From assembly GCA_020426005.1 (NCBI GenBank), contig JAGQQW010000001.1, positions 32,909-96,908 on the forward strand: a stretch of 64,000 nt of DNA, in the 5' to 3' direction. This DNA comes from Planctomycetota bacterium (GTDB lineage: Bacteria > Planctomycetota > UBA1135 > GCA-002748355). Shown here in pieces: positions 1,652 to 55,677 of the stretch. The first letter of the stretch is position 1; every line of letters begins with the position of its first letter. The position numbers and the translations under genes are program-made. The notes beneath the pieces are model-generated. The model ran no database searches. It was given only the letters and a program-made list of their open reading frames with translations, and was not told where the DNA came from.

Positions 1652-1667
1652 GCTGCGATCGCCTCCC

Positions 1668-2786: not shown

Positions 2787-2805
2787 CTCGTCGCCGGCCG
2801 CGCCG

Positions 2806-5876: not shown

Positions 5877-5955
5877 GACATCGGTGACCCGCTGAGTCGC
5901 AGTAAGCGCACGCTGCGGCCTTTGTTTGCGCACCCATCCGCGCAGACCCGACAAC

Positions 5956-7869: not shown

Positions 7870-7876
7870 CGCCGGG

Positions 7877-8119
7877 TCAATCTCGCGTCTTGCGGGCCTG
7901 CGCGTCGGCAGTCGAAGCCTCGAGGACCTCGGTACGACGCAACCACGCGAGACGACGCTCACAGCGTGCGCGCTCGGCGACGACATAGTTGGCATCGGCC
8001 TGCAACGCACTGAGGCGTGCACGCAGATGCAGGGTCCGGGTCCGAAGGGCGACCACCAGGAGACACACGACCAGGCAGAGGAAGAGCGCGATGAACGCGC
8101 CTCCCCACCTCATCGCCAT
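7877..8119 (-). CDS. ftsL: Cell division protein FtsL-like small bitopic membrane protein
   Basis: About 80 aa (MAMRWGGAFIALFLCLVVCLLVVAL then a coiled-coil-like tail) between rsmH and ftsI. Position and topology match FtsL, but there is no sequence-level family evidence. The upstream part of the 155-aa track ORF is Arg/Gly-rich and overlaps rsmH. Confidence 0.5.
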   Translation of the reverse strand: MAMRWGGAFIALFLCLVVCLLVVALRTRTLHLRARLSALQADANYVVAERARCERRLAWLRRTEVLEASTADAQARKTRD

Positions 8120-9108
8120 GCCTCCTGGCGACCTACCGGGGGATCGGAATCGGCCGTCTTCGCGGCCACTCGGAGCTTCGCGCTCCGACTGCGGGGATTG
8201 CTCTGCAGCTCCTCGGGGCCCGCGGTGACGGGCTTCTTCGTGATTCGCTGCATGTTCTCCCTGACGAACGTCTTCACCAGACGATCCTCCAAGCTGTGGA
8301 ACGAGATCACGACCAGGCGACCCCCGACGCGGAGCGCACGGCATGCTGCCGCGAGCCCCGCCTCGAGGACCTCCAGCTCTCTGTTGGTCGCGATTCGCAA
8401 CGCTTGGAAGACACGCGTCGCCGGATGAATCCGTCCACTACGCGCCGAGGGTGGCACCGCTCGAACCACCAACTCGGCCAGCTCCCCACCAGTCGTGGGA
8501 AGCAACTGACGTTTCCGCTCTTCGCAGATCGCTTGCGCGATCCGTCTCCAGAAGCGCTCTTCGCCGTACTCCCGGAACCAACGACCGAGTTCCTTCTCCG
8601 GAGTCGTCCGGAGCAGGTCCAAGGCAGTCGGTCCAGAAGTCTGGTCGTAACGCATGTCGAGAGAGGTCGAAGAACGGAAGGACAACCCCCTCCCGGGGTC
8701 GTCCATCTGATGCGAGCCGAAGCCCAGATCCGCGAGAACTCGATCGACAGAGTCGATACCGAGCCCTCGAAGGACCTCGTCCAAATCGGCGTAGCTCGCG
8801 TGACGAAGCTCCACTCTCGGGGCGACCCCTGCTAGAGCTTGCTCTGCGGCGGCGATCGCGGACGCGTCCCGGTCGAGACCGATCAACGTTCCACGAGCGC
8901 CGAGTTGCTCGGCAATCCCGATCGCATGGCCACCCATGCCGACCGTCGCGTCCACGACGGTCTGCCCCTCCTCGAGAGCGAGGGCTTCGATGACTTCCTT
9001 GAAAAGAACAGGTGTGTGGGGCGGCAACCCCGAATGTCCGTGTTCGCCTGACTCGTTCACGCGACGTCGCGCAGCGCCAGGCCGGGCCAGGAAGGGAGAG
9101 AGAGCCAC
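8110..9108 (-). CDS. rsmH: 16S rRNA (cytosine1402-N4)-methyltransferase RsmH (MraW)
   Basis: A 332-aa protein starting HTPVLFKEVIEAL with VVDATVGMGGHA SAM-binding motifs, located directly downstream of mraZ. Confidence 0.9.
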   Translation of the reverse strand: MALSPFLARPGAARRRVNESGEHGHSGLPPHTPVLFKEVIEALALEEGQTVVDATVGMGGHAIGIAEQLGARGTLIGLDRDASAIAAAEQALAGVAPRVELRHASYADLDEVLRGLGIDSVDRVLADLGFGSHQMDDPGRGLSFRSSTSLDMRYDQTSGPTALDLLRTTPEKELGRWFREYGEERFWRRIAQAICEERKRQLLPTTGGELAELVVRAVPPSARSGRIHPATRVFQALRIATNRELEVLEAGLAAACRALRVGGRLVVISFHSLEDRLVKTFVRENMQRITKKPVTAGPEELQSNPRSRSAKLRVAAKTADSDPPVGRQEAWR

Positions 9109-9151
9109 GAGCCCTCTCCCCCCCGGAGAAGATCGATGCAGTGCGAGTGCA

Positions 9152-9619
9152 TCACACCGGGCCCTCTTCTCCGCTGAGGATGGCTTCCAGATCCTCCTGC
9201 CAATTCGCTGTCTTGGCCTCGTAGGCCTTGTGCACTTCGGTCGCCCAGAGCTCGATGCGCTTGAGGACGCCGACGCAGGTCAGGCTGTCCCCGATCTTCG
9301 CGAACTCGCGCAGTCGATCCGGGATCGCGATGCGACCCTGCGCATCGAGCTTGACGCGCTCGGCGAGGCCGAAGAACCAGCGCTGCACCGCGCGCGTCTT
9401 CGCGTCGACCTTCTCCGAGCACTTGAGAATGCGTTGTTGGCGACGCCACTCGGGTTCGTCGAGCAGCCAGAGGCAGCCATCGACACCGGGCGTCAGCCAG
9501 AAGCTCGTGAGCGTGCGCGTGTACCCGTCGCCGTCTTCCTTCTCTTCCAGGAATTGCTTCGGAAAGAAGGCGCGCCCTTTCGGGTCGACTTTCACCTCTT
9601 TGCTTCCGAAGGCTTCCAT
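9152..9619 (-). CDS. mraZ: Transcriptional regulator MraZ
   Basis: A 155-aa protein with the duplicated MraZ fold (the FxGxxxxxxDxKGRxxxP-type repeats KVDPKGRAFFP and LDAQGRIAIP). It is the first gene of the dcw cluster. Confidence 0.9.
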   Translation of the reverse strand: MEAFGSKEVKVDPKGRAFFPKQFLEEKEDGDGYTRTLTSFWLTPGVDGCLWLLDEPEWRRQQRILKCSEKVDAKTRAVQRWFFGLAERVKLDAQGRIAIPDRLREFAKIGDSLTCVGVLKRIELWATEVHKAYEAKTANWQEDLEAILSGEEGPV

Positions 9620-13437: not shown

Positions 13438-15612
13438 TCAACGAGCGAGTTCGGACGCCGCACGCGCGAATGCAGCCTGATCCACCGAGAGGCGACAGTG
13501 CGCCGGCTCGCCATCGACACCAACGATGACGGACTTGCCGCTACCTCGTACTCGAACAAATCGATCACCGCGCCTCAGTTCGACGCCCAGCTCGTAGGGC
13601 CCTGCTCGGAGCAAGGACAATCGGGCGAGACCTTCGCCCGACAGGAGTGCGGATCTGCTCGTTGGCTCCTCGCCATACGTCGCGTAGAGCCGGTGGGCCT
13701 TGACGATGATCGTCTCTTCGCGCCACGCACGATCCGCGCGAACCCATGCCGTTACATCGCTCGGGAATTCGCCGATCCCCGAGACCTCGACCGCGAACTC
13801 GATGGGATCGTCGAGCGTCAAGGTCGCAGGGCCAGCGACCTGACGGAACACAGTGCGACACTCATCCTGAGTTCGCACCGTCACATCGACGACCGGACGT
13901 GACGTCACGAGCCACAAGCGACCGGACAGGAACGGGACGGCGTACAGCTCACCGTCTACTGCGGGCGGAAGGAACGTGGCGAGCCCCCGGCGTACGGGTT
14001 CGCCACCAGGGCGGACGACGGTCAACTCGTGCACGACGACGCGTCCGAGCAAATCGACACGCAGTGTTTGCACGAGTGGCGCCTCCGCGATGACGATCTC
14101 GTGGTCCGTGTAGACGCGTTCGCCCGTAGCCGTCACAACGACCTCGAGTGCACAGCGCCCGGGCGATACCGCGGCCCAATGGAAGCCATCACCGCGAACC
14201 GCACCATTCAGGACGAGTCCATCGGGCGTCGCCAGTCGGCACGACAAAGCCTTGCTGGCTCCCACCGGTCGATTCAGGACTTCTACGTCGACGGTGACGC
14301 CATGCACCGCGTTCACGACGATCGCTGCTCCAGGAACGAACTCACGTGGAGCGATTGGGCAACAGCCCTCGACCACCGCCGCGAGACGCAAAGAAGCACT
14401 CGAGGTGACATCGCCATGCACGACGAAGCGCCCTTCGCCGACAGGCGTGATCAAGATTCGTTCGTCGACGCTCCAGCCCTCACGCAGGTCGTGCGCGGAA
14501 GGCCTCGCTTCCACGCGAAGGTCGACCTTGTGGTCCGGATGCTCACCATCTTCGGTCACGCGTACGGTAGCAATCGTTCGAAGCGGCTGGAAAAGGACTC
14601 GCCCGACGTCGTAATCACGACCTCGCGACAATGGCAGGAGTGGCATTGCCTGGAAGAACGAGTCGTTCCGCATGAATAGCAATCTCAGCTCACCGCGCGG
14701 AGCGCGATCGATCAGGAGTCGACTCACGGCGACGGAGAACTTTCCACTGGCATCGGTCTCGAAACGAACTTGCGTGCCCATCGACGCGAGAATGCAGTCG
14801 GCCTCGGAACACGGAACTCCATCCAACACTGCAGTGCCACGGATCACGGCAGAATCGCGCGACACGTCGAGGTCGACCACGACCTCCTCGCCACCGCGGA
14901 CCGGCCCTTTGATCTGTCGAATCGCATCGAGGAAACCGGGAGCGTGCGCGTTGCACCACCAACTCTGGTGCAGTCCGACGCGTGAAAACTCCGCGTAGTC
15001 GGTTCCCGACGAAATCCTCTCGAACTGCCGGTCGCGCCCAGAGGGATCGACAAACCGAACGTGCGCTCTAGGAATCCCTCGCCCCAGGGCATCGACCATG
15101 CGCACCTTGATGGAGCCGTGCGGCGGGAGAACGAAATCGACTCGATCCGCACGATCGAGATCGACTTCCTTCGCTAGAGAATCGAAGCCGAGAAGCTCGG
15201 GAACCAGACGAAGCTTGCCGTGCTCGTCAACATCGAGATTCGCGCGCTCGAGGCGGAGCTCGCCGCGCTCGTCGGTCACGAACGACGATGTGAACACACC
15301 GCTGGGCGCGGGGATCACTTCGATCTTGCATCCTGCAACCGCGCGAGCATCCGCATCACGAACCGTCACGAGTAGCGTGTGCCGCGCTCTGCCTGCAGGT
15401 TCGCGCGTGGCACGCCTGGATTCGGACTTCGTGCCATCGATTGCCTTCTCGACCGATGGCGCAACCTCCTTCTCGGGTCGGATACGGACCGACCTGCCCG
15501 ATTGCATGTCGTCGGTACGAACAGGCGACCGATCAGCGAACAACACGGACCATGTCGCCAACAGAACGAAGCAACTGATCACGGACAGCCATGTGAGTCG
15601 CAACGCCTTCAT
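13438..15612 (-). CDS. Large secreted hypothetical protein with repeated carboxypeptidase-regulatory-like or Ig-like beta-sandwich segments
   Basis: A 724-aa protein with N-terminal signal peptide MKALRLTWLSVISCFVLLATWSVLFA. It contains several segments of the type VxVxDxxGxPxxGAxV...TDxxGxFxL that recur in the two paralogs at 29.5-33.5 kb. It has no recognisable catalytic motif. Confidence 0.6.
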   Translation of the reverse strand: MKALRLTWLSVISCFVLLATWSVLFADRSPVRTDDMQSGRSVRIRPEKEVAPSVEKAIDGTKSESRRATREPAGRARHTLLVTVRDADARAVAGCKIEVIPAPSGVFTSSFVTDERGELRLERANLDVDEHGKLRLVPELLGFDSLAKEVDLDRADRVDFVLPPHGSIKVRMVDALGRGIPRAHVRFVDPSGRDRQFERISSGTDYAEFSRVGLHQSWWCNAHAPGFLDAIRQIKGPVRGGEEVVVDLDVSRDSAVIRGTAVLDGVPCSEADCILASMGTQVRFETDASGKFSVAVSRLLIDRAPRGELRLLFMRNDSFFQAMPLLPLSRGRDYDVGRVLFQPLRTIATVRVTEDGEHPDHKVDLRVEARPSAHDLREGWSVDERILITPVGEGRFVVHGDVTSSASLRLAAVVEGCCPIAPREFVPGAAIVVNAVHGVTVDVEVLNRPVGASKALSCRLATPDGLVLNGAVRGDGFHWAAVSPGRCALEVVVTATGERVYTDHEIVIAEAPLVQTLRVDLLGRVVVHELTVVRPGGEPVRRGLATFLPPAVDGELYAVPFLSGRLWLVTSRPVVDVTVRTQDECRTVFRQVAGPATLTLDDPIEFAVEVSGIGEFPSDVTAWVRADRAWREETIIVKAHRLYATYGEEPTSRSALLSGEGLARLSLLRAGPYELGVELRRGDRFVRVRGSGKSVIVGVDGEPAHCRLSVDQAAFARAASELAR

Positions 15613-15799
15613 ACCTACTCCGACATGGGAATCGGACGCGCGTCCTGTTCTCGAGAGTGGGGCTCTTCATCGGGGCCAAAGAGAAGCGCGCCGCAAACGC
15701 CTGAAAGCACGCGATGCATCCTCTGAATGGCCAGGATATCCGTAGCCTCGCTAAATCAGCAACCCGCGCCGAACCCGCCGCGCGGCTATCCTGCGCCGC

Positions 15800-16186
15800 A
15801 TGTCACAAGAGAACTCCCTCCACAACCGAGCCGTTTGGTTCGACATCCCGGTCGCCGATCTCGATCGCGCCGACTCGTTCTACGCCGCTGTCCTTGCATG
15901 CAGCGTCGACCGCGTGTCGATGCCCGGCATGAGCTTTTCGGTCCTCGAGCATGACAAGGGCAACGGCGGCTGCCTCGTCCAGAAGCCCGACGAAGTCGCC
16001 TCGGACCGGGGCATCCTCGTCTACTTCAACGCGGAGGGCAGGATTCGCGACGCGGTCGCCAAAGCGCGCGAACACGGCGGCGAAGTCGTCGAGGACACGC
16101 ACTCGATCGGCCCGCACGGCTTCCGCGCGATCGTGCGCGACAGCGAAGGCAATCGCATCGCGCTGCACTCCGAGAGCGACGCCTGA
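15800..16186 (+). CDS. VOC (glyoxalase/bleomycin-resistance/dioxygenase) family protein
   Basis: A 128-aa protein. WFDIPVADLDRADSFY and the C-terminal GFRAIVRDSEGNRIALH are typical of small VOC-fold proteins. It lies 85 bp upstream of the FAD oxidoreductase on the same strand. Confidence 0.75.
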   Translation: MSQENSLHNRAVWFDIPVADLDRADSFYAAVLACSVDRVSMPGMSFSVLEHDKGNGGCLVQKPDEVASDRGILVYFNAEGRIRDAVAKAREHGGEVVEDTHSIGPHGFRAIVRDSEGNRIALHSESDA

Positions 16187-16271
16187 GTCGCAGCGGACGC
16201 GGGCACGAGCACTTACGAGATCTTCACCGAGGAGAATCCCTCGACGCGAACAGCGACGCTAGCGTGCTGAC

Positions 16272-17552
16272 ATGGCGAGCGAGCAGGACAGCTTCGACGT
16301 CGTGATCGTGGGTGCGGGGATCCAAGGCCTTGCGCAAGCACTCTCGGCCGCGAAACGCGGCCATCGCGTGCTCGTGCTCGAACGCACGAAGCGCGCACTC
16401 GGCGCGAGCGTCCGCAACTTCGGCATGATCTGGCCGATCGGGCAACCACTCGGCGTGCGCCTCGAACTCGCACTCGCGAGCAGACGATGCTGGCTCGAGT
16501 TCGCGCGCGCAGCCAAGCTGCCACTTCGTGAATGCGGATCGCTCTTCGTTGCGACGCAGGACGACGAGACCGAAGCGATGGAGTCGTTCGTGAACACGAT
16601 GCAAGGCTCCGGACTCGAACTCCGTTTTCTGTCGCGCACGGAATGCAAACGCGCCTCCCCCCTCGTGCGCGAGGACCGAGTGATTGGAGGCATGTCGAGC
16701 GACACCGAGGCGAACATCGACCCTTGGCACGCGCTCGCGTGCCTCGCGCACTGGCTCGAGGAATCCCATGGAGTTCGGTTCTCGTTCCAAGAAGCCGTGA
16801 CGCACGTCGAGACGGATCGCGTCGAGACGTCACGCGCACGATCGATTCGCACGTCACGCACGATCGTGTGCGAAGGGCTCACAGCGACGAAGCTCTTCCC
16901 CGAAGCGTTCGACGACGCGTCGCTACTCCCGTGCCGTCTGCAGATGCTGCGCACGGCGCCGCTCGGGAGCGACATGGGGCCGATGCTCGCGACCGGGCTC
17001 ACGCTGCGTCACTATCCGTCCTTCGCGCTCGGCATCGCACGCGCCGAGGACTCCGGACTCGCCGCGTTCGATCGCAGAATACGCAGCGAGCTGCCGGCGC
17101 TCGACCGCTTCGGCATTCACGTCATGGTCTCGCAGGACCACGAAGGGCGCCTCGTCCTCGGCGACTCGCACGTCTACGGCGATGCGGCACTCGAGCCCTT
17201 TCGATCCGAGCGCATCGACGAACTCGTCCTCGCCGAACTCGACGCGCGCTTCTCGATTCGCGCACTTCGGATCGAAGAACGTTGGCAAGGTCGCTACCTC
17301 AAGCGAACGGGGCATGGCGTCTTCGTGCACGACCCGATGCGGAACGTGCGCATCGTCAACGGCCTCGGAGGCAACGGCATGACGCTGAGCTTCGGCATCG
17401 CCGAGACGATGTGGAACGACTGGAGCGATGCAGATCTGCTTTCGGGACTCGCGGACCCGGAGCCGCTCGAAGGGACAGCGCCGCGCATCGAATCGCGCGG
17501 GGAGCTTCACGACGATCTTCACACGCAGCCCGGGCGAACCTTCACGACGTGA
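16272..17552 (+). CDS. FAD-dependent oxidoreductase (DAO family, resembles the TIGR03364 clade associated with aminophosphonate catabolism)
   Basis: A 426-aa protein with an N-terminal dinucleotide-binding motif DVVIVGAGIQGLAQAL. Its overall layout matches DadA, SoxB and ThiO-like amine oxidases. The assignment to the TIGR03364 clade is from memory of that family and was not checked against a database. Confidence 0.85.
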   Translation: MASEQDSFDVVIVGAGIQGLAQALSAAKRGHRVLVLERTKRALGASVRNFGMIWPIGQPLGVRLELALASRRCWLEFARAAKLPLRECGSLFVATQDDETEAMESFVNTMQGSGLELRFLSRTECKRASPLVREDRVIGGMSSDTEANIDPWHALACLAHWLEESHGVRFSFQEAVTHVETDRVETSRARSIRTSRTIVCEGLTATKLFPEAFDDASLLPCRLQMLRTAPLGSDMGPMLATGLTLRHYPSFALGIARAEDSGLAAFDRRIRSELPALDRFGIHVMVSQDHEGRLVLGDSHVYGDAALEPFRSERIDELVLAELDARFSIRALRIEERWQGRYLKRTGHGVFVHDPMRNVRIVNGLGGNGMTLSFGIAETMWNDWSDADLLSGLADPEPLEGTAPRIESRGELHDDLHTQPGRTFTT

Positions 17553-17589
17553 CACGACCCTGCGACGAGTGAACCTCGTCGTCCCGGCA

Positions 17590-18876
17590 ATGCGCAGCTG
17601 GCTCTCGAATCGCAGCCGCGGAACGTTCGCTGCCTACTGCATCGTCGCGGCGTTCGGGACGTACTTCTGCATGTACGCGTTCCGCAAGCCGTTCACGGCC
17701 GGAACCTTCGAAGGCGCACCGGCCTTCGGACTCGCATGGAAGACCGTCCTGATCACGGCGCAAGTCGCGGGTTACACGCTATCCAAGTTCGTCGGCATCC
17801 GCGTCGTCTCGGCGATGTCGCCCGCGAAGCGCGCCCTCGCGATCGTCGGCCTGATCGCGGTTGCCGCAGTGGCGCTCGCACTCTTCGCGATCACACCACG
17901 CCCGTGGAACGCGGCATTCTTGTTCGTCAACGGGTTGCCACTCGGAATGGTCTTCGGCCTCGTCATGGGTTTCCTCGAGGGGCGTCGACAGACCGAAGCG
18001 CTCACCGCGGGCCTGTGCGCGAGCTTCATCCTCTCGTCAGGAGTCGTGAAGTCGGTCGGGCGTGACCTGATCGTCCACCGCGGAGTCGAAGAAGCCTGGA
18101 TGCCGGTCCTCACCGGCGCACTCTTCTTCGTGCCGCTGATCCTGTTCGTCTTCCTGTTGGCGCAGATCCCGCCGCCAGACGAAGGAGACCTCGAACACCG
18201 CAGTGCACGGAACCCGATGACGACCATCGACCGTCGCGAGTTCTTCAGGCGACACGCACCCGGTCTGATCGGTCTCGTCGCGGTCTATCTCTTCTTGACG
18301 ATCGTCCGCAGCGTGCGCGACGACTTCGCGGTCGAGATCTGGCGTGACCTCGGCACGACGGGTAAGCCATCGATCTTCGCGTCGACCGAATTGATGGTGA
18401 CCATCGTCGTGCTCGCAATCAGTGGCGCGGCATTCTTGATCCAGTCGAACCGTCGCGCGTTCTTCGGCTCACTCGCGACGATGTGGATCTGCTTCGTCGC
18501 GACGATCGCGCTCGTGCTCTTGCGCAGAAGTGGAGCGCTCGGTCCGTTCGCGTTCATGGTGTTGAGCGGCGCTGCGGTCTACGTACCCTACGTATCGTTT
18601 CACACGACGGTCTTCGAACGCCTGCTCGCCGTGCTGCGTGAACGCGCCAACATCGGATACTTGATGTATCTCGCGGACGCGTTCGGTTACCTCGGCTACG
18701 TGATCGTCATGGTGCTGAGGAACTCGTGGAGCGGAAGCGTTGATTTCTTACGGTGGTTCGAACTCGTTCTGATCGCGCTCACTGCTGCGTCGCTCGCCGT
18801 CACACTCCTGGTCGCGCGTTACTTTTCCGGCCAATTGCGAACCAACGCACCACCCCTTCGAGTCGGAGCAGAATGA
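17590..18876 (+). CDS. Polytopic integral membrane protein (putative transporter), family unknown
   Basis: About 429 aa with at least 10 hydrophobic helices. The start is refined to MRSWLSNRS at 17590 because the upstream part of the track ORF overlaps the FAD gene end and is Arg-rich. Its stop overlaps the next start (ATGA), indicating translational coupling with the HD-domain gene. Confidence 0.65.
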   Translation: MRSWLSNRSRGTFAAYCIVAAFGTYFCMYAFRKPFTAGTFEGAPAFGLAWKTVLITAQVAGYTLSKFVGIRVVSAMSPAKRALAIVGLIAVAAVALALFAITPRPWNAAFLFVNGLPLGMVFGLVMGFLEGRRQTEALTAGLCASFILSSGVVKSVGRDLIVHRGVEEAWMPVLTGALFFVPLILFVFLLAQIPPPDEGDLEHRSARNPMTTIDRREFFRRHAPGLIGLVAVYLFLTIVRSVRDDFAVEIWRDLGTTGKPSIFASTELMVTIVVLAISGAAFLIQSNRRAFFGSLATMWICFVATIALVLLRRSGALGPFAFMVLSGAAVYVPYVSFHTTVFERLLAVLRERANIGYLMYLADAFGYLGYVIVMVLRNSWSGSVDFLRWFELVLIALTAASLAVTLLVARYFSGQLRTNAPPLRVGAE

Positions 18877-19430
18877 ACACGATGCATGTGGATTCGATTC
18901 TCGATCTGTTGCGGGACAACGGCTCGTGCGCCTACCTCGGCGAGCAGGTGACGCAACTCGAGCACGCGTTACAGTGCGCGACTCTCGCCGAGGAGGCAGG
19001 AGAATCCTTGCCGCTGGTCCTCGCATGCTTGTTGCACGATGTCGGACACCTCGTGCGCCTCGGAACCGAGGATCGCAACGCAGGTGACGACGGGCACGAA
19101 GGCATCGGCGCACGGTTGCTCGCGAGGTGCTTGCCGCCCGGCGTGACCGAGCCGATTCGCCTGCACGTGTCTGCGAAACGGTATCTCGTCGCGAACGATC
19201 CCAGTTATCGCACGAACCTCAGCGAAGCATCGATGTACAGCCTCGAAGCTCAGGGCGGCGCGATGTCGGCGGCGGAGTGCGCTCAGTTCGAAGCCGAACC
19301 GCATGCCGACGACGCCGTGCGGCTACGCCGCTACGACGAACGCGGCAAGACTCCAGGTTTCGCGACGCTACCGCTCGAACACTTCGAGCCGTTCATCCAC
19401 GCACTCGCCTCGACCATGCAACCGGAGTGA
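18873..19430 (+). CDS. PhnZ-like HD-domain protein (putative mixed-valent diiron C-P bond-cleaving oxygenase, TIGR03276-like)
   Basis: 186 aa from MNTMHVD. AYLGEQVTQLEHALQCATLAEEAG...LVLACLLHDVGH closely matches my memory of the conserved N-terminal block of PhnZ (YIGE.V.QLEH.LQ.A..A...GA...L..AALLHD.GH), and later VSAKRYLVA also matches. The start is refined to an ATGA overlap with the upstream gene. Confidence 0.8.
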   Translation: MNTMHVDSILDLLRDNGSCAYLGEQVTQLEHALQCATLAEEAGESLPLVLACLLHDVGHLVRLGTEDRNAGDDGHEGIGARLLARCLPPGVTEPIRLHVSAKRYLVANDPSYRTNLSEASMYSLEAQGGAMSAAECAQFEAEPHADDAVRLRRYDERGKTPGFATLPLEHFEPFIHALASTMQPE

Positions 19431-19434
19431 CCCC

Positions 19435-20496
19435 ATGCGCTCACTCGTGTTCCGCGGTACGCAGGAGCAAGCGTTCGAACTCACCGAACACGATGCACCG
19501 GAGCCCTCCGCAGGCGAAGTCCTCGTGGACATCGAGTGCACTACGATCTGCGGCAGCGACCTACACACGATCACCGGTCGACGCGTAGCGAAGCTACCGA
19601 TCGTTCTCGGTCACGAAATCGTCGGTACCGTGAGCGCACTCGGTCCGGATGCACCGCGGACGATCGATGGTCGCGAACTCTCCGCGCAGGACCACATCGT
19701 ATGGTCCCTGGTCGTCGCGTGTGGAGCGTGCGATCCGTGTCGGCGCCGCCACGAAGAGCGCTGTGCAAAGCGTTTCAAGTATGGCCACGAAAGCACGAAC
19801 GACGCACCGTGCAGCGGTGGACTCTCGGATCGCTGCTTGTTGAGGCACGGCACCGCGATCGCGCACGTGCCCGAAGGACTCGACGACCGCGTCGCCGCGA
19901 GCACAGCGTGCGCGGGGGCAACCGCCGCTGCCGTCCTGCGACGGCTCGGCAACATCGAGAGGGACAGTGTCGTCGTCTTCGGCTGTGGATTGCTCGGCTT
20001 GTGTGCAATCGATTCCGCCAAGCGCGCGGGCGCGTCCCGTGTCATCGCGGTCGATGTCGACGGCGACCGCCTCGCGCGCGCAACGAAGTTCGGAGCCGAC
20101 GCGATGATCTTCGGCAACGATCCGGACGACACTCGTACTGGCCTGAGCGCACTTCTCCCCGCCGGTGCAGACGTCGCGATCGAAGCGTCGGGTTCGAGCA
20201 CCGCCGCCACCATCGCACTCGCCTGTCTTGCACTCGGAGGCCGCGCGGCCTTCGTCGGTTCGGTCTTCCCCTCCGATCCGATTTCGATCGTTCCCGAAGA
20301 CCTCGTGCGTCGACGGCTCACGGTCTTCGGACAGCACAACTACGAGCCGCGCGACCTTCTCTCCGCGCTCGCGATGATGCGGCAGAGCTCGGCTCCATAC
20401 GCCGAGTGCTTCACAGATCCGATACCGCTCGCGGATGTCGGTCCGGTCTTGGCATCGGGAACTCCGTCTGCGCTGCGTATCGCCGTGCGTCCGTGA
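19435..20496 (+). CDS. Zinc-dependent alcohol dehydrogenase family (MDR) protein
   Basis: About 353 aa from MRSLVFRG with a GroES-like domain carrying catalytic Zn ligands (CGSDLH, GHEIVG), structural Zn cysteines (CGACDPCRRRHEERC) and the Rossmann motif VVFGCGLLG. The start is 4 nt after the HD gene stop. Confidence 0.85.
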   Translation: MRSLVFRGTQEQAFELTEHDAPEPSAGEVLVDIECTTICGSDLHTITGRRVAKLPIVLGHEIVGTVSALGPDAPRTIDGRELSAQDHIVWSLVVACGACDPCRRRHEERCAKRFKYGHESTNDAPCSGGLSDRCLLRHGTAIAHVPEGLDDRVAASTACAGATAAAVLRRLGNIERDSVVVFGCGLLGLCAIDSAKRAGASRVIAVDVDGDRLARATKFGADAMIFGNDPDDTRTGLSALLPAGADVAIEASGSSTAATIALACLALGGRAAFVGSVFPSDPISIVPEDLVRRRLTVFGQHNYEPRDLLSALAMMRQSSAPYAECFTDPIPLADVGPVLASGTPSALRIAVRP

Positions 20497-20514
20497 CTCG
20501 ACGGCGGGGCGAAC

Positions 20515-21858
20515 TCAGCGGAGCTTGCCGCGTAGCTCGTCCAACGTCGTGCCGAACTCGTCTAGGACCTTCTGCGGAAACTCGGCACCGAGTCCGGTGA
20601 ACCGATTCCGCGCTTCGAAGATGCGGTCGTTCTCGACCAGTGCGCACGTCAACCGCGAGGACCACAGTCGATAGTCGTCCTCTGTGAGATTCTCGTTCGT
20701 GACCCGAACGAGGATATGGAACACGTCTTTCCGATTCTGCGCGAGGACTTCTGAGAGCGGGCGCTTCGTCACCCGAGCGATCCGCTCCAAACACTGCCAA
20801 GCGCGCAGGGGCACTCGCGTGTCGGAGAGCTTCGACTCAGCGCACTCGATCGCGAACGAGAGGAGGCAACGTTCGGCCTCGGGTCGCTCCTCCAGGTAGC
20901 GAATGTAAAACTCATAGGCCATCGGGGAGTCCACAATGACCGCACGGCACCGATCGAACCAAGTCCGCGCTTCGCGTTCGTCCATGTCCAACACGTTGGC
21001 CATGGACAACATGGCCAACGGTACGACGTAGGCCGTAGGGTCCTTGGCATACAAATCCGACCATAGCTTGGCTGCAAATCTGTCGCCCGCAACGTCTCGT
21101 TTCTTGCCCGCCGTCAGCATGACCTGGCCCGCTCGCAGCGCTCGCACACACCAGTTCGACACACGCTCGTCGTTGAGCTTGGCAACGACCGCATCCAGCA
21201 ATGCACACATCTCGGCTTGCTGCTTCGCATTGGAGCGGACGGGGATCCGCGCAGGTTGTTGGAACGAGAAGTGCGCCACGTATTCTCGTAACAACCCTGG
21301 GCGTTTCAAGGCATTGGTCCACGCTTCGACGTACGCGTCGAGATCTGTCTCCAGGCTCAACTCGAACCGTATCCAGAACTCCGCAGCCCGAAGGCTCATC
21401 GTGACGACCGGGTCACGAGCTGCCGTGGTGGTCGCAACCCGTGTCGCGTAGTCGACAGCATCCCGCATCGTCTCGCGGTCGCCGAGATTCCAAGCAGCCT
21501 TCGCGTAGATCGCTGCCACGACAGAGTCGACACAACCGCTCTCCACCACGCGTTGGCACTTCCGGAGGACGTCTTCGTACTCGGTGGATCCCAGCCACAA
21601 GCCCCAACTCGAGATGAGCTCGATCACGTCTACGTTCCACTTCGAATCGCGATCGCCATTGCGGACAAAGTCGCGCGTGAAGGCATCTCGGAGCAGGGCG
21701 CTTTGCAGTTGACGATAGTCTCTCATCCGCACACCGAAGAGCGGCGGCTCGAGCGGAACCGATTGCGATTCGCCTTCCTGCGCAGTGAGCGATCCAAAGC
21801 CCACGAAGAAGGACGAAAGGAGCAGAACCAGTCTTGGGAGTCGATCGGCTTCGAGCAT
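20515..21858 (-). CDS. Secreted alpha-helical hypothetical protein
   Basis: A signal peptide (MLEADRLPRLVLLLSSFFVGFGSLTAQE) begins at an internal ATG, and the upstream 63 aa of the track ORF are Arg-rich. About 447 aa with helical composition and no recognisable motif. Confidence 0.55.
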   Translation of the reverse strand: MLEADRLPRLVLLLSSFFVGFGSLTAQEGESQSVPLEPPLFGVRMRDYRQLQSALLRDAFTRDFVRNGDRDSKWNVDVIELISSWGLWLGSTEYEDVLRKCQRVVESGCVDSVVAAIYAKAAWNLGDRETMRDAVDYATRVATTTAARDPVVTMSLRAAEFWIRFELSLETDLDAYVEAWTNALKRPGLLREYVAHFSFQQPARIPVRSNAKQQAEMCALLDAVVAKLNDERVSNWCVRALRAGQVMLTAGKKRDVAGDRFAAKLWSDLYAKDPTAYVVPLAMLSMANVLDMDEREARTWFDRCRAVIVDSPMAYEFYIRYLEERPEAERCLLSFAIECAESKLSDTRVPLRAWQCLERIARVTKRPLSEVLAQNRKDVFHILVRVTNENLTEDDYRLWSSRLTCALVENDRIFEARNRFTGLGAEFPQKVLDEFGTTLDELRGKLR

Positions 21859-22085
21859 GAGAAGTGGGTGCACTTGGCTGCACGACTGTAGACCGTGACA
21901 GGACATCTCGCGAGCCGCGCTGCTGGTGTGCGTTCGAGAGAATGCTGCGGGCTGCCACCGAGGAGGCCGCTCATGACATCGGCGCGTCAACTCGTCCCTT
22001 GCTCCGGGCGTGAGTTCTCCTGCGCCAAGAACGACACTACGTGGCACTCCGTTCGCTCGAATCGACGGACATACCGGAGTCCACC

Positions 22086-23765
22086 ATGAAGAAGCACGTA
22101 CTCGTCGTCATTCACGGCGTGGGTGATGCATCACCTGGGTCGAGCATCATGGACGTCAGCCGGGGACTTGCCGCGAAAGGTGTGTCCGGCTGTCGAGCGG
22201 ATCTGGTTCTCGATGGAGTGCAGTACCCGCGGATCCTTCTCGAGGGTAGCCCGATCGCGGAACTCGTCGAAGTCAACTGGTCGGACATCGCGCGACCGAA
22301 GCGCAACGCATTCGGCCTCGTTCACTACTTCGCCAAGATCATCGTGGCGATGCTCGACGTCGCGATTCGAAACCCCGAGCCGCCACCGAGCGATACACAG
22401 GACGAGCCGCCACCGCCTCCACAGAGCCAGCGATGGCTTGCAAGAGCGTACCGCGCAAGCTTCGAGGCACTGTTCTTCTACTGCATCGTTCCACCGCTCG
22501 TGACGATGCTCTGGATGAGCCTGCAACCGATGCAGACATGGACCGTGGTCGCGATCGGGCTCCTCGGGGCACTCGTCCTCGCGGCGATGACGCTCTATCT
22601 GTCGAAGAGTTTCCGAGGCAAGTTCTGGTTCGGATGGCTCTGGGCACTCGCGCTGATCCTCGGGACCGTCCTGGTCGTGACGGACAGACTCTCGCTGGAA
22701 GCGAGCGTCCGGTTCTCGACGATCGCCTATCTCGGGAGCCAAGTGCTGACGGGCACACTGCTCTTGGCCGCGCTGCTGGAAATCCATATGCAAGCGTGGT
22801 CGGCGCAGCAACGCATCGCCCGCATGGGCCTACTCTACTTGCCGTTCTTCGCGATGTCGGCGATCGGAGCACTTGCGTGGGCGATCGCACTCTGGGCAGT
22901 CAAAGCGGCCAACTCGACGGCAGGAGCCTTCGACCAGTGGCAAGACCTCTACGCATCGACGCTCGACTCTTACGGCTACGACCTCGCGTGGATCGAACTC
23001 ACGTTCGCACTCTTGGTCGGCTGCATTGCCATCGGCGTACTCATCGTCGCCCTGCGGTATTCCCTTCTCGCAAAGCGGTCTCGCTCCGGGGCGGGCCAGT
23101 GGGCACGCGACGCGGTCCAGTACGTGCTCGCTGCTGGGGCAGCGCTCTTCGCAGCGCTATCGATCGTGTACGCAGTCTCCGCGATCTCATCCTGGCGAAG
23201 CGGCTGGAACTCGTCGGCCCTCGTCATCTACAGCTGGTCGGCCCTCCGCTTCGTGCCCTATCTGCCGGTACTTCTGGGCCCGGTCGCCATCGCGTTCGAC
23301 GTGATCGTGGACGTGTTGTTCTATGTCGATCCGCGAGATGAGATCTCCACCGCCTCGCGACTACAGCGACGCGTGCAGCCCGCGATCGAGTACGCAAAGA
23401 CGAGAGGGGATGCTCCGGTACTCGTCGCAGGACACAGCCAGGGCTCCGTGATCGCGCTGGACGTTCTGGGACAAGACGTCAAGGACGACGGGAACGATGG
23501 CACGTTCTTGATCACGGCGGGCTCGCCGATCCACTCGCTGTACGAGTCGTTTCTCGGCAGCAGCCCCGGTGGCCGTGCAAAGAATCGCAGAGCACAGTTT
23601 CGAACGCCCACCCGGTGGATCAACCTCGTTCGCAATGGCGACTACGTCGGCGGCGAACAGAACAAGTCGAACGTCATCGAAGAGAATCTCGGCGTCGGCG
23701 GCCACACCGGATACTGGAAGAATCCGAATCTCTGGGATCGCGTCCTGGCAGCAATGCCGAGCTGA
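22086..23765 (+). CDS. Membrane-embedded alpha/beta-hydrolase-like protein with HGxGD and GHSQG motifs split by a multi-TM insertion
   Basis: The start is refined to MKKHVLVVIHGVGD (an oxyanion-hole-like HG motif). This is followed by roughly 8 hydrophobic helices, then the nucleophile-elbow motif VLVAGHSQGSVIAL and a C-terminal GGHTGYW (a possible catalytic His). Confidence 0.6.
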   Translation: MKKHVLVVIHGVGDASPGSSIMDVSRGLAAKGVSGCRADLVLDGVQYPRILLEGSPIAELVEVNWSDIARPKRNAFGLVHYFAKIIVAMLDVAIRNPEPPPSDTQDEPPPPPQSQRWLARAYRASFEALFFYCIVPPLVTMLWMSLQPMQTWTVVAIGLLGALVLAAMTLYLSKSFRGKFWFGWLWALALILGTVLVVTDRLSLEASVRFSTIAYLGSQVLTGTLLLAALLEIHMQAWSAQQRIARMGLLYLPFFAMSAIGALAWAIALWAVKAANSTAGAFDQWQDLYASTLDSYGYDLAWIELTFALLVGCIAIGVLIVALRYSLLAKRSRSGAGQWARDAVQYVLAAGAALFAALSIVYAVSAISSWRSGWNSSALVIYSWSALRFVPYLPVLLGPVAIAFDVIVDVLFYVDPRDEISTASRLQRRVQPAIEYAKTRGDAPVLVAGHSQGSVIALDVLGQDVKDDGNDGTFLITAGSPIHSLYESFLGSSPGGRAKNRRAQFRTPTRWINLVRNGDYVGGEQNKSNVIEENLGVGGHTGYWKNPNLWDRVLAAMPS

Positions 23766-28192: not shown

Positions 28193-29506
28193 ATGAAGAC
28201 CAAGCTCTCGGTCATGATGTTCCTGCAGTACGCGATCTGGGGCGCTTGGCTCCCGCTGCTGTGGCCCTTCCTCAACGGGCATCGCGGTTTCACAGGTACT
28301 GAGATCGGCCACATGTTCGCGGTCGGGGCAGTCGGTGCAATCGTTGCGCCGTTCATCGCTGGACAGATCGCAGACCGCTATTTCAACACCGAGAAGTTCT
28401 TGGGGCTCAGTCACCTCATCGGTGCAGGGCTCGTGTGGTTCCTCGCCACGACGGAGACGTACTCCGGCTTCCTCTGGCTGAGTCTCGCGTACTCCCTCGT
28501 GTACTCGCCGACGCTTCCACTCACCAACTCCCTCGCATTCCACCACCTCGAGGATCGCGACCGTGACTTCGGCCGTGTGCGTGTTTGGGGAACCGTCGGC
28601 TGGATCGTTGCCGGCATCCTGATCGGCCAGTTCCTGTATCACTTCCATACGCCCACTGAAGCGGCGTTCTCGGAGGCCGTAGCCCAGAACCTGACGAGCG
28701 CCACGGACTTCAAAGGCTTCACGGATGCCGCGTACCAAGCCGGCATGGGCAATGCCTTCAAGCTCAGCGCAATCCTGGGTGTCGTGATGGGCCTCTACTG
28801 CCTCTTGGTGCTGCCGAAGACGCCTCCGACGAAGGGCAAGGAAGCAAACGCGACAATGGAAGCCCTGAAAGAAGTCCGGCGGCAACCCTTGCTCACGCTC
28901 TTCTTGCTTGCGGTGCCGGTGAGCTGCATCCACCAGTTCTACTTCGTGCACACTTCGGGCTTCCTCGGCACCGTGCAGTCCAGCGCAACCGAGGCGATCA
29001 ATAAAGTGTTCGGTGTCGGAGGTGGCGGGCTCATGACGATCGGGCAGATCAGTGAAGTCGCCGTTCTCGCCGCGATTCCCCTCGTCGCCAAGGACTGGTC
29101 CCGCAAGACACTGCTCGCGATCGGCCTGCTCGCTTACGCAGGCCGCATGGCTCTCTTCGCGCATGCTGCCGACAGCGTCCCGCTCGTCATGCTCGGCCTC
29201 GCGCTCCACGGATTGTGCTTCGGTTGCTTCATCTTCGTCGCGTTCATGATCGTCGACGAAGAAACGACGAAGGACGTGCGCGCGAGCGCGCAGAGCCTCT
29301 TCAATCTCGTCATCATCGGGATCGGGATCATCGTCGGGAGCATGATCGCGGGTGACATTGCCGAGCGGTACATGGTCGACAACAAGGTCACGGACTACAC
29401 CGGCCTCTTCTCGTGGCCCATGTGGGCCGCGCTCGCGTGCTTCGTGCTCCTGATGCTGTTCTATCCCAACGGTCGCAAGCCGGCGCCACAGTCCTCGACC
29501 CCCTGA
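28193..29506 (+). CDS. MFS transporter, nucleoside:H+ symporter-like (NHS/MFS_1_like) subfamily
   Basis: A 437-aa protein with 12 predicted TM helices and an N-terminus (MMFLQYAIWGAWLPLLW) characteristic of the NHS-like MFS group. Confidence 0.85.
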   Translation: MKTKLSVMMFLQYAIWGAWLPLLWPFLNGHRGFTGTEIGHMFAVGAVGAIVAPFIAGQIADRYFNTEKFLGLSHLIGAGLVWFLATTETYSGFLWLSLAYSLVYSPTLPLTNSLAFHHLEDRDRDFGRVRVWGTVGWIVAGILIGQFLYHFHTPTEAAFSEAVAQNLTSATDFKGFTDAAYQAGMGNAFKLSAILGVVMGLYCLLVLPKTPPTKGKEANATMEALKEVRRQPLLTLFLLAVPVSCIHQFYFVHTSGFLGTVQSSATEAINKVFGVGGGGLMTIGQISEVAVLAAIPLVAKDWSRKTLLAIGLLAYAGRMALFAHAADSVPLVMLGLALHGLCFGCFIFVAFMIVDEETTKDVRASAQSLFNLVIIGIGIIVGSMIAGDIAERYMVDNKVTDYTGLFSWPMWAALACFVLLMLFYPNGRKPAPQSSTP

Positions 29507-51428: not shown

Positions 51429-51447
51429 ACTGCGGATCGTAGCGACA

Positions 51448-51912
51448 TCACGGTCGTCGAACGACAGTCGACGTGCCGAGCATCGTCGCATGGAGGTGCG
51501 CCACCGAGAGGCCCCAGACGGCAGCAGTCGTCCACAAATACAGCCGATGACGGTCGTAAAAGCGGCGTGCATCCAGCACGTTTCCTGCACTGGCGTCGAG
51601 GAGCGCATCGAGCCACGGATGCAGCACGAACAGGGCGATCTGCGCGAGGGTCAGCAACGCGAGGATCACGATCGAGCGCCGTACGCGGTCCATCTTCGCG
51701 CGATGCGAGATCACGTCGAACCACAGGAGCACGATGACGACAGCTCCGAGGAGGTTCCATGACGAGGTCACGTCGCGGGTCACGAAACCCTGGGCGCGAT
51801 GCGATCCGAGAATGCGCTGACCGGTCGGCACGACCACGAGTGCGTAGAACGTCAGGCCACCGAACCAAACCGCGAACAGCGAGAACAGGGTCGTGCGAAA
51901 CCAACGGTACAT
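51448..51912 (-). CDS. Small integral membrane protein (4 TM), unknown function
   Basis: A 154-aa protein with four hydrophobic segments, lying between nupC and the PNP gene in the same operon. Confidence 0.5.
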   Translation of the reverse strand: MYRWFRTTLFSLFAVWFGGLTFYALVVVPTGQRILGSHRAQGFVTRDVTSSWNLLGAVVIVLLWFDVISHRAKMDRVRRSIVILALLTLAQIALFVLHPWLDALLDASAGNVLDARRFYDRHRLYLWTTAAVWGLSVAHLHATMLGTSTVVRRP

Positions 51913-51928
51913 ACGAACGATCTCGCGC

Positions 51929-53200: not shown

Positions 53201-53294
53201 GAGGGACCTCGTTACGGACGGAGGCGAACACGAGCAGGGCGCGACGATAGCGCGGTGTCGCCTCGGAATCTGCGGTGCGCCGCCGATCGCCGGA

Positions 53295-55621: not shown

Positions 55622-55677
55622 CGCGACATGTTGCATCGAAGTCGCCGCGGTGCCAACCAGAACACGCCGTACGTGGC

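Follow-up and report, generated by a model that had tools for sequence, protein, structure and literature searches.

The locus at positions 15800-20496 of the window (the whole 64-kb stretch of DNA that was analysed) is a compact operon that harvests phosphorus from small natural phosphonates. With a probability of roughly 0.6, we read it as a planctomycete-type modular operon scavenging two-carbon phosphonates, with one importer, three parallel entry enzymes and an aldehyde hydrolase encoded elsewhere. A preliminary description of this DNA had proposed a phosphonate-catabolic gene set, which is supported, and a new route through the HD-domain enzyme, which is unsupported. The enzyme families of the operon are now mostly characterised and the DUF5690 transporter family is unstudied; the sole odd feature is the missing hydrolase that is normally paired with two of the enzymes.

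We propose that an MFS importer, DUF5690, brings phosphonates in and that three entry enzymes work side by side, each on natural phosphonates of its own, their substrates being those expected by homology to the characterised PbfD, PbfG and PhnZ. The HD oxygenase would directly cleave pre-formed (R)-1-hydroxy-2-aminoethylphosphonate (HAEP), or a closely similar 1-hydroxy compound, yielding glycine and phosphate. This branch would require no PhnY*-type hydroxylase and would be the only one to reach phosphate with genes of the operon. PbfD would oxidise 2-aminoethylphosphonate (AEP) and N-methyl-AEP, and PbfG would oxidise 2-hydroxyethylphosphonate (HEP), both to phosphonoacetaldehyde, whose further use would need PhnX, a PhnX-like HAD or PhnY/PhnA. 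We assume that the gene for the phosphonoacetaldehyde hydrolase most likely lies in another part of the genome, outside the window.

Operon layout and the DUF5690 transporter

Five ORFs lie on the plus strand with junctions of 85 bp, 37 bp, an ATGA overlap and 4 bp; the five co-directional genes and junction sizes given in the preliminary description matched the re-examined ORFs exactly. The first gene (15800-16186) codes for a VOC/glyoxalase-fold protein of 128 aa with weak Pfam matches (PF00903/PF18029; Glyoxalase_6, 27.6 bits; Glyoxalase, 27.0 bits). It had been counted as part of the operon, but it is missing from the syntenic closest relative, L001, and its single homologue among 166 related loci lies 5 kb from the cluster on the opposite strand (L106). 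The VOC protein is thus not a conserved member of the cluster, and probably not a functional one.

The third gene (17590-18876), 37 bp downstream of the FAD oxidoreductase gene, codes for a membrane protein of 428 aa that matches PF18943 (DUF5690) with 460.5 bits and has no match in NCBIfam. Its AF2 model (pLDDT 88.6, pTM 0.88) is all-helical, with a 12-helix MFS fold, and yielded 330 PDB structural matches at E<=1e-3, MFS transporters first. The best fold matches were the G6PT1/SLC37A4 glucose-6-phosphate transporters (TM about 0.63-0.68, 19-20% identity). The modelled fold agrees with the earlier suggestion that the membrane protein is the importer, the best matches being organophosphate transporters of the G6PT/SLC37 type, and the protein is very probably the importer, with C2 phosphonates as the cargo predicted from gene context. 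GlpT and UhpT are organophosphate:phosphate antiporter-type MFS transporters. DUF5690 has the 12-helix fold in common with the SLC37/G6PT transporters of this type (TM about 0.65) but forms a separate Pfam family without a characterised member.

Modules around DUF5690 in related loci

Gene neighbourhoods were compared in the 166 related loci, with a strict subset of 23 independently sampled DUF5690 loci, from metagenomes or genomes, having at least 4.5 kb on each side. In all 23, DUF5690 adjoins at least one of PbfD, PbfG, HD or a PhnX-like HAD, in line with the beyond-chance co-occurrence anticipated for the gene set. The sets were HAD+HD+PbfD+PbfG, PbfG alone and HAD+PbfD (four loci each), HAD+PbfD+PbfG (three), HD alone, HAD+HD+PbfD and HAD+PbfG (two each), and HD+PbfG and HAD alone (one each). 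PbfD was accompanied by a PhnX-like HAD in 13/13 cases (Fisher p=5e-4). PbfG was associated neither with HAD (p=0.66) nor with HD (p=1.0), and HD was not associated with PbfD (p=0.67). Across the 166 loci, DUF5690 is the hub around which the PbfD+PhnX-like HAD pair, PbfG and HD assort as separate modules. The single pathway envisaged in the preliminary description does not fit these statistics, which reveal three independent modules and tie PbfD to HAD rather than to HD.

DUF5690+PbfG without a nearby C-P-cleaving gene recurs in four loci (L106, L109, L135 and L155), indicating that the aldehyde-consuming enzyme is commonly encoded elsewhere, as also noted for PbfG clusters (PMC13576164). In L001, PbfD, DUF5690, HD and PbfG follow one another as they do in the window, and their ORFs are intact (54-71% identity), which argues that the arrangement is maintained. 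This bears on the possibility that the cluster is decaying, a PhnX-like gene having been lost and PbfD and PbfG being functionless remnants beside a working transporter-HD pair. Such a pair is a viable minimal unit, since DUF5690-HD pairs without the other enzymes exist in L045, L077, L110 and L142. However, none of the four ORFs in the window is disrupted, the spacing between them is short and their catalytic residues are retained. In L001 the same genes, in the same order, are also uninterrupted although the proteins have diverged by 29-46%, and six-frame scans detected no HAD remnant; we regard decay as very unlikely.

Two predicted C2-acting enzymes and the missing hydrolase

The FAD oxidase of 426 aa (16272-17552), which follows the VOC gene after an 85-bp gap, scored 368.1 bits against TIGR03364 (cutoff 285.1) and 171.6 bits against DAO. 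Its N terminus carries the dinucleotide motif GAGIQG (VGAGIQG, residues 13-19; GxGxxG FAD-binding), and of 37 columns with a conservation of 95% or more across 47 PbfD homologues it keeps 36, the single change being a K-to-R substitution common to L001. HMM searches agreed with the families named beforehand for this protein, the HD protein and the dehydrogenase (TIGR03364, TIGR03276 and, at a score just under its cutoff, TIGR03366), but the description of TIGR03364 and TIGR03366 as uncharacterised no longer holds. The TIGR03364 family has been identified as PbfD, an oxidase that acts on AEP and N-methyl-AEP at C2 and yields phosphonoacetaldehyde (Zangelmi et al. 2023, PMC10590968), a function proven in vitro for enzymes including one from a planctomycete. 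The enzyme in the window is accordingly of PbfD type, and its predicted reaction, by analogy, is AEP or N-methyl-AEP + O2 to phosphonoacetaldehyde, NH3 or methylamine, and H2O2.

The Zn-dependent medium-chain dehydrogenase of 353 aa (19435-20496), encoded 4 bp downstream of the HD gene, scored 324.2 bits against TIGR03366, 4 bits under the cutoff of 328.1. The next family, threonine dehydrogenase, scored 122.9 bits, making TIGR03366 the nearest family by far. C39, H60 and C159 (catalytic Zn), as well as S41, R50, H118 and N302, fall in columns invariant in 44/44 homologues, and the structural four-Cys Zn motif CGACDPC...C is present. These residues match Cys45/His66/Cys166 (Zn) and Ser47/Arg56/His124/Asn298 (predicted HEP-binding; PMC13576164, section 2.8) of C. 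protaetiae PbfG when its numbering is mapped by sequence spacing rather than by alignment of that protein. The pf00107 ADH of such clusters has been characterised as PbfG, which interconverts HEP and phosphonoacetaldehyde (Piazza et al. 2026, PMC13576164), and the dehydrogenase in the window is by analogy predicted to catalyse HEP + NAD+ <-> phosphonoacetaldehyde + NADH. It is of the same pf00107 type as the published enzymes, with threonine dehydrogenases as the nearest characterised relatives, and has the predicted Zn-ligand and HEP-binding positions conserved. It differs from them in its score below the TIGR03366 cutoff and in its divergence: the enzymes of the window and L001 are the most divergent PbfG members in the sample, keeping 36/41 and 35/41 conserved columns, respectively. 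PbfG clusters have been reported in Planctomycetota, and some contain phnZ (Figure 2b of PMC13576164). The published clusters hold phnX or phnY-phnA, whereas the operon in the window has neither.

No PhnY*/TauD, PhyH, PhnW, PhnX-like HAD, PhnA or C-P lyase was found by Pfam searches of the 45 window ORFs or six-frame HMM searches of the whole window, and relaxing the threshold to E<=10 brought up no HAD match there. This bears out the absence of PhnY*, PhnW, PhnX, PhnA and C-P lyase noted at the outset. The operon is like the PbfD-PhnX (HpnW-PhnX) pathway in its TIGR03364 oxidase, which scores above the curated cutoff, and in having no PhnW; the HpnW-PhnX operons of Achromobacter likewise have a TIGR03276 HD protein ('PhnHD') next to them, an association already regarded as puzzling (PMC11203657). 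It differs in that the PhnX-like HAD, which accompanies PbfD in all 13 complete sampled loci, is absent here and from L001. The transporter differs as well, being MFS here, whereas L004, the one proteobacterial PbfD-HAD-HD locus in the sample, has PhnD/PhnE ABC-transporter genes.

It is unusual for PbfD to lack a neighbouring PhnX-like HAD (counting loci with sufficient flanks, 0/13 in the strict DUF5690 set and 1/22 in a looser set). The non-truncated HAD-less PbfD loci found (the window, L001, L039, L070 and L152) all carry HD, which hints that HD might compensate, with a hand-estimated, non-significant p of about 0.12 (one-sided). HD could thus have taken over the job of PhnX by oxidative cleavage of phosphonoacetaldehyde (or its hydrate/enol) or of HEP, which, if true, would give the HD diiron oxygenases a new class of substrate. 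Phosphonoacetaldehyde is the predicted product of both PbfD and PbfG, and apart from HD the operon offers no candidate for C-P cleavage. Nevertheless, this takeover appears highly improbable: enzymes of the PhnZ family reportedly show high specificity for (R)-alpha-hydroxyphosphonates (PMC10574752), the HD protein of the window is unchanged in all 36/36 family-conserved columns, and HD and HAD co-occur rather than exclude each other, HAD being present in 6/7 HD+ loci with PbfD or PbfG.

The HD-domain oxygenase and the source of its substrate

The HD protein of 185 aa (18873-19430), whose ATG overlaps the TGA of the membrane-protein gene as ATGA, barely passed the TIGR03276 cutoff (214.7 versus 214.6 bits). 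Its PDB sequence matches were TmpB (6npa, 5e-35) and PhnZ (4mlm, 7e-29), to both of which the PhnZ-type motifs noted earlier align. H31, H55, D56, H75, H98 and D155 align with PhnZ H34, H58, D59, H80, H104 and D161, so that all six His/Asp diiron ligands, in the numbering that we take to be that of the 2013/2014 PNAS papers, are kept. Y21 and E24, invariant in an alignment of 27 sequences, correspond to PhnZ Y24 and E27, and K102, S120, S123, Q127 and R152 to PhnZ K108, S126, T129, Q133 and R158; in the PhnZ structure, these are presumably substrate-loop (Y24/E27) and phosphonate-contact positions, E27 binding the 2-amino group of the substrate. The H...HD...H...H...D motif is an identifier of HD oxygenases, among which a 'fifth histidine' has also been described (PMC11203657); this residue corresponds to H59, part of the GH motif that follows HD, and is invariant in 27/27 aligned homologues. 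Judged by its sequence, the protein is a genuine member of the PhnZ/TmpB family of mixed-valent diiron oxygenases and lacks none of the ligands. It has the diiron motif, the fifth histidine and the Tyr24/Glu27-aligned and phosphonate-contact positions in common with the enzymes of the PhnY*/PhnZ, TmpA/TmpB and GmPhnY*/GmPhnZ1 systems, as well as significant sequence matches to solved TmpB and PhnZ. By analogy, it is predicted to convert HAEP, in the (R) form, or a close 1-hydroxyphosphonate, with O2 to glycine and phosphate. It scored far under the cutoffs of 300 for NF049941 (TmpB, 167.5 bits) and NF052439 (PhnZ1, 137.1 bits). Since it fails to reach equivalog level with any of the three characterised specificity models, its substrate stays a prediction.

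In the preliminary description, a flavoenzyme or dehydrogenase was to make or process the 1-hydroxy- or 1-oxo-phosphonate substrate. Both families act at C2 and lead to phosphonoacetaldehyde; neither makes such a compound, so there is no obvious feed to the HD oxygenase. In the most chemically coherent form of that idea, which dispenses with PhnX, the PbfD-like oxidase would deaminate HAEP to 1-hydroxy-2-oxoethylphosphonate, the ADH would reduce this to 1,2-dihydroxyethylphosphonate or otherwise reshape C2, and HD would cleave the resulting 1-hydroxyphosphonate. The presence of HD in every non-truncated HAD-less PbfD locus and the divergence of the ADH are in its favour, as is a DUF5690::SDR fusion adjoining an HD gene in L085, where a further dehydrogenase type, unrelated to the first, lies next to HD. 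Yet the E27-aligned position, which we take to bind the 2-amino group, is kept, arguing that HAEP is taken directly and that a serial detour would be pointless. The oxidase and the ADH retain, respectively, nearly all family columns and all predicted HEP-binding residues, and HD is associated with neither PbfD nor PbfG. HAEP was the substrate proposed in the original TIGR03364 annotation (quoted in PMC10590968), but characterised PbfD is reported to be active only on AEP, N-methyl-AEP and N-ethyl-AEP, and PbfD1 also on N,N-dimethyl-AEP, although HAEP derivatives had been prepared for use in the specificity assays (PMC10590968). We therefore consider the serial route unlikely.

The 1-hydroxy substrate might instead be made in an ordinary two-step oxidative pathway, in which a distant PhnY*-like (PhyH) or TmpA-like (TauD/GBBH) Fe/2OG dioxygenase hydroxylates AEP. 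PhyH-type dioxygenases lie beside DUF5690 or HD in L110, L128, L137 and L074 and are fused to HD in L047, indicating that some members of the HD clade of the window have a hydroxylase partner. However, neither the window nor L001 has a TauD/GBBH-type or PhyH-type gene, whereas the PhnY*/PhnZ and TmpA/TmpB pathways have an adjacent Fe(II)/2OG hydroxylase making the 1-hydroxy substrate. Hydroxylase-linked or fused HDs belong mostly to other clades, where the genes are adjacent or fused, and AEP would already be consumed by the PbfD of the same operon. A distant hydroxylase thus seems improbable.

Earlier published work had drawn attention to the question of an orphan TIGR03276 protein beside HpnW/PbfD-PhnX operons (PMC11203657). 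Our preferred reading, direct cleavage of a pre-formed substrate, agrees with the position of the HD protein in a large tree clade without a TauD-type hydroxylase within 6 kb. Moreover, 23/80 genome loci are stand-alone HD genes without a recurrent neighbour. Both observations are consistent with an environmentally supplied 1-hydroxyphosphonate as the substrate.

Operon anatomy and enzyme families

Analysis of the ORFs of the window confirmed, exactly, the five plus-strand genes of the preliminary description (15800 to 20496) and all of their junctions. A VOC gene (15800 to 16186), with only weak glyoxalase-family matches, is followed after 85 bp by an FAD oxidoreductase of the PbfD type (16272 to 17552; TIGR03364, 368.1 bits, cutoff 285.1) and, after a further 37 bp, by a membrane protein (17590 to 18876) that matched PF18943, DUF5690, at 460.5 bits and no NCBIfam family. 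The ATG of the HD gene (18873 to 19430; TIGR03276, 214.7 bits, cutoff 214.6) overlaps the membrane-protein TGA in the sequence ATGA, and 4 bp separate it from a Zn-dependent alcohol dehydrogenase (ADH; 19435 to 20496), for which the second-best family, threonine dehydrogenase, scored 122.9 bits. The three TIGR families had been named in the preliminary description, correctly by profile scores, TIGR03366 for the ADH lying just under its cutoff (324.2 versus 328.1 bits). For DUF5690, an alternative start at ATG-17428 gives a longer ORF overlapping the oxidase gene; homologues and the Pfam match start near 17590. A scan of positions 15500 to 20800 yielded 0 promoter-like sites; for terminator-like sites, the frequency was that expected from shuffled sequences.

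The VOC gene is not counted as part of the system. It is absent from L001 (ENA ERZ794926, NODE_1658), the closest syntenic relative of the window, and its one homologue among 166 related loci (63% identity; L106, 16477 to 16854, minus strand) is not adjacent to the cluster, a distance of about 5 kb separating it from a DUF5690-PbfG pair on the opposite strand. A role as a pathway member, e.g., as a FosA-like protein or an isomerase, was rejected as unsupported, the gene not being conserved with the cluster.

Natural phosphonates such as 2-aminoethylphosphonate (AEP), N-methyl-AEP, 2-hydroxyethylphosphonate (HEP), and 1-hydroxy-2-aminoethylphosphonate (HAEP) form a sizeable pool of phosphorus, and Planctomycetota are major biomass degraders. 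The partner families of HD, initially regarded as proposed but uncharacterized, have been characterized since the TIGRFAM notes, as PbfD (TIGR03364; PMC10590968) and PbfG (PMC13576164). PbfD enzymes of Acinetobacter and of the planctomycete Mariniblastus use O2 to oxidize N-methyl-AEP and AEP at C2, yielding phosphonoacetaldehyde (PAA), which is then hydrolyzed by PhnX (PMC10590968). PbfG, the pf00107 ADH recurrent in such clusters, interconverts HEP and PAA as an efficient, NAD-dependent dehydrogenase, with the equilibrium on the HEP side unless PhnX pulls the reaction; it is known from Planctomycetota, and phnZ is found in some of the clusters (PMC13576164, September 2026, Figure 2b). The window oxidase retains 36 of 37 conserved PbfD columns. 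The ADH retains the catalytic Cys/His/Cys and the structural four-Cys site, and its S41, R50, H118, and N302 correspond to the predicted HEP-binding residues Ser47, Arg56, His124, and Asn298 of PbfG (PMC13576164, section 2.8). All of these zinc and HEP-binding positions are in columns invariant in 44 of 44 homologues; even so, no family members are more divergent than the ADHs of the window and L001. A function of the ADH as a PbfF-like HAEP racemase was ruled out, as PbfF belongs to pfam02826 and has a different fold (PMC12366243).

Judged by its sequence, the HD protein is a complete enzyme of the PhnZ/TmpB family. It matched the solved structures of TmpB (6npa, 5e-35) and PhnZ (4mlm, 7e-29), and H31, H55, D56, H75, H98, and D155 align with the six iron ligands of PhnZ, the presence of which had been set beforehand as a test. 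Y21 and E24 correspond in the alignment to Y24 and E27 of PhnZ; K102, S120, S123, Q127, and R152 align with PhnZ residues that we take to be phosphonate contacts; and the protein retains each of the 36 columns that show at least 95% conservation among 109 homologues. H59 is the "fifth histidine," a hallmark of the TIGR03276 clade (PMC11203657). Compared with TmpB and GmPhnZ1, the protein is a non-equivalog (167 versus 300 bits and 137 versus 300 bits, respectively). Separately, the HD protein of L001 (P0001, L001 7646 to 8203) has Glu in place of the last iron-ligand Asp (D155 in the window, Asp in ~90% of homologues) and Met in place of the conserved Lys four residues past that position.

The predicted DUF5690 transporter and its partner modules

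We know of no characterized member of the DUF5690 family, and we found no discussion of it in a phosphonate context in the literature, the only mention found being unrelated. The model of the window protein is all-helical, with 12 transmembrane segments (pLDDT 88.6), and its best structural matches were the glucose-6-phosphate transporters G6PT1/SLC37A4 (TM about 0.65), with other MFS transporters coming next. To avoid sampling bias, we used a DUF5690-anchored sample composed of three individual neighborhoods and 80 metagenome loci. The cluster of Rhodopirellula baltica SH1 (L084, 5151 to 10244; BX119912.1, ~3.07 Mb) reads PbfG and an HTH/cupin regulator, both on the minus strand, then DUF5690-PbfD-HAD, where HAD denotes a PhnX-like PAA hydrolase. 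Locus L086 reads PhoD-PbfD-HAD-DUF5690-PbfG, and HD is absent from both.

In all 23 of the DUF5690-sampled loci with at least 4.5 kb on each side, DUF5690 was flanked by one or more of the four enzyme genes, in line with the co-occurrence of these families across genomes that had been put forward in the preliminary description. The combinations were HAD+HD+PbfD+PbfG, PbfG alone, and HAD+PbfD (four loci each); HAD+PbfD+PbfG (three); HD alone, HAD+HD+PbfD, and HAD+PbfG (two each); and HD+PbfG and HAD alone (one each). HAD accompanied PbfD in 13/13 cases (Fisher P = 5e-4) and in 21/22 of a looser set (P = 3e-6). No dependence was seen between PbfG and HAD (P = 0.66) or HD (P = 1.0), nor between HD and PbfD (P = 0.67). 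The picture is one of a transporter that serves as the hub, with PbfD+HAD, PbfG, and HD as three modules that assort independently.

The strongest new prediction of the analysis is that DUF5690 is an MFS phosphonate importer. As a hub for interchangeable phosphonate-entry modules, this domain of unknown function would gain a concrete, testable function, and the model planctomycete R. baltica is tractable for testing it. In that organism an insertion sequence (DDE transposase) is found immediately downstream of the cluster. A gene of ~480 codons, labeled a class-III-like aminotransferase from the appearance of its sequence, is located beside DUF5690 in five loci (L060, L116, L143 [7443 to 8891], L151, and L157) and could be a candidate alternative AEP transaminase module.

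Fate of phosphonoacetaldehyde and role of the HD oxygenase

The window PbfD has no HAD partner, and neither has that of L001, in which gene order is identical and downstream synteny is conserved, with protein identities of 65% (PbfD), 71% (DUF5690), 63% (HD), and 54% (PbfG). Decay of the cluster is a very improbable account of this arrangement. The two PbfDs form their own branch of the tree; the other nontruncated HAD-less PbfD loci (L039, L070, and L152) are scattered, each with HD. The HAD-less PbfDs as a single clade were ruled out, as they are scattered save for the window-L001 pair and several are contig truncations. HAD was always there at PbfD loci devoid of HD. When both samples were pooled, HAD was present:absent at ~25:5 PbfD loci with HD versus 15:0 without HD (hand calculation, P ~ 0.12, one-sided); a link of HD to HAD-less PbfD is suggestive at most. 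The presence of HD did not predict absence of HAD, as functional replacement of HAD by HD would have it, among the DUF5690-sampled loci with a PAA-producing enzyme, where HAD was present/absent in 6/1 HD-positive versus 9/4 HD-negative loci (P = 0.61).

The gene anatomy, the family assignments, the retained residues, the fold of the transporter, and the modular pattern of co-occurrence were established directly; the enzyme substrates, the transporter cargo, and the distal hydrolase are inferred. The most likely reading of the locus, with a probability of roughly 0.6, is that of a modular operon that works as follows. DUF5690 would import small anionic C2 phosphonates. PbfD would convert AEP and N-methyl-AEP, and PbfG would convert HEP, to PAA, which would be hydrolyzed by a PhnX-type enzyme encoded elsewhere. 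HD would directly cleave preformed (R)-HAEP, a natural product, to glycine and phosphate, in parallel to the role of the PbfA lyase of PhnWX clusters. The recurrent DUF5690-PbfG pairs with no C-P-cleaving gene nearby evidently depend likewise on a PhnX-type enzyme elsewhere, and many organisms with these dehydrogenases carry separate hydrolytic AEP-degradation clusters (PMC13576164). The operon of the preliminary description is real and serves phosphonate utilization, but rather than a new pathway the locus is a recombination of modules now largely understood. If this mundane explanation is true, orphan TIGR03276 oxygenases are over-interpreted by metagenomic surveys in which phnZ serves as a marker of the PhnY*/PhnZ AEP pathway.

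The idea initially put forward was a serial, hydroxylase-independent route in which flavin and NAD enzymes, instead of PhnY*, prepare the HD substrate. We regard it as improbable, and it is very improbable that HD has gained a PAA- or HEP-cleaving activity that replaces PhnX. Both proposals are disfavored because the known chemistry of PbfD and PbfG takes place at C2, PhnZ enzymes reportedly prefer (R)-alpha-hydroxyphosphonates (PMC10574752), and conserved family residues are kept in all three window enzymes; they keep a small probability because the hydrolase-less arrangement is conserved across two diverged genomes. It is unlikely that the lineage of the window and L001 has dispensed with a PhnX-type hydrolase, with the PhnZ-like diiron oxygenase as the sole C-P cleaver of its PbfD/PbfG operon. 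If it had, an undescribed link would lead from PAA or HEP, or from HAEP via flavin and NAD steps, to a substrate that HD can cleave, and the commonest natural phosphonates would have a hydroxylase-independent oxidative route served by a new MFS importer family, DUF5690. A 2024 paper on Achromobacter described an orphan TIGR03276 protein, PhnHD, beside HpnW(PbfD)-PhnX operons in organisms without PhnY*, called its role a conundrum, and raised as one idea that the oxidase supplies its substrate (PMC11203657). The present locus, where PbfD and PbfG accompany a PhnZ-like enzyme in the absence of PhnX, represents a clean natural test case for the true substrate of hydroxylase-less TIGR03276 oxygenases and for the fate of PAA in a PhnX-less variant.

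Neither HMMs from related loci, run over every frame of the 64-kb window, nor Pfam searches of 45 ORFs revealed a PhnX-like HAD, a hydroxylase of the TauD/GBBH or PhyH type, or any remnant of these, in agreement with the initial view that the window holds no PhnY*-type enzyme. That such a hydroxylase is encoded at a distance and acts with HD is improbable in our estimation. We compared 80 genome loci with an HD homologue, whose neighbors were classified by BLAST and later by HMMs. Where a TauD/GBBH-type hydroxylase adjoins HD or is fused with it, the HDs fall into clades of their own; TmpB belongs to one of these, and another is linked to a different MFS transporter. In the tree, the window HD belongs to a large clade without such a partner, which includes a planctomycete-rich group embedded in DUF5690/PbfD/PbfG/HAD clusters, a group whose genes come last in C-P lyase or PhnDE operons, and 23 genes that stand alone and have no recurrent neighbor. 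Only five loci had a PhyH-type (PhnY*-like) dioxygenase next to HD or fused with it.

PhyH-like genes beside DUF5690 or HD were noted at L110 (11260 to 12102), L128 (139 to 1101), L137 (7587 to 8621), and L074 (7616 to 8566), indicating that a hydroxylase partner does exist for some HDs of this clade, which otherwise lacks one. Single-ORF fusions of a TauD/GBBH-like hydroxylase to HD occur in actinobacterial loci (L016, 8951 to 10540; L037, L076, L027, and L053), and a PhyH-type dioxygenase is fused to HD in L047 (3917 to 5368); these bacterial fusions are counterparts of the fused fungal PhoF enzyme. In L085, HD (6149 to 6718, minus strand) is divergent from a DUF5690::SDR fusion (7001 to 9070; P0130, 689 residues, SDR C-terminal), which places another dehydrogenase type, unrelated to the first, next to HD and DUF5690.

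Genomic surroundings

Pfam scans of the flanks gave genes without relation to phosphonates: upstream, a dcw cell wall cluster, a GFO/IDH oxidoreductase, a SpoU methylase, a sulfatase, and a large protein with a CarboxypepD_reg domain; downstream, two unknown proteins, an S8-PKD peptidase, a xylose-isomerase-like protein, and a nucleoside symporter. Two large ORFs abutting the 3′ end of the operon (20515 to 22047, minus strand; 22041 to 23765, plus strand) are not conserved in L001. Like three others, all on the minus strand (36133 to 37608, 48444 to 50498, and 55755 to 57773), they encode 490 to 690 residues, have coding-like GC3, and match no Pfam family at E ≤ 1e-4. The remainder of the window contains glycosyltransferase and nucleoside-salvage genes, the latter grouped at 50565 to 55723 on the minus strand (PNP/UDP-type phosphorylase, Na+-dependent concentrative nucleoside transporter, cytidine deaminase, and phosphoribosyltransferase), with a separate Nuc_H_symport MFS gene at 28193 to 29506. 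The dcw cluster (539 to 9619, minus strand) has Pfam matches to mraZ, rsmH (MraW), a PBP transpeptidase, two Mur ligases, mraY, and ftsW/rodA, which indicates that the organism makes peptidoglycan.
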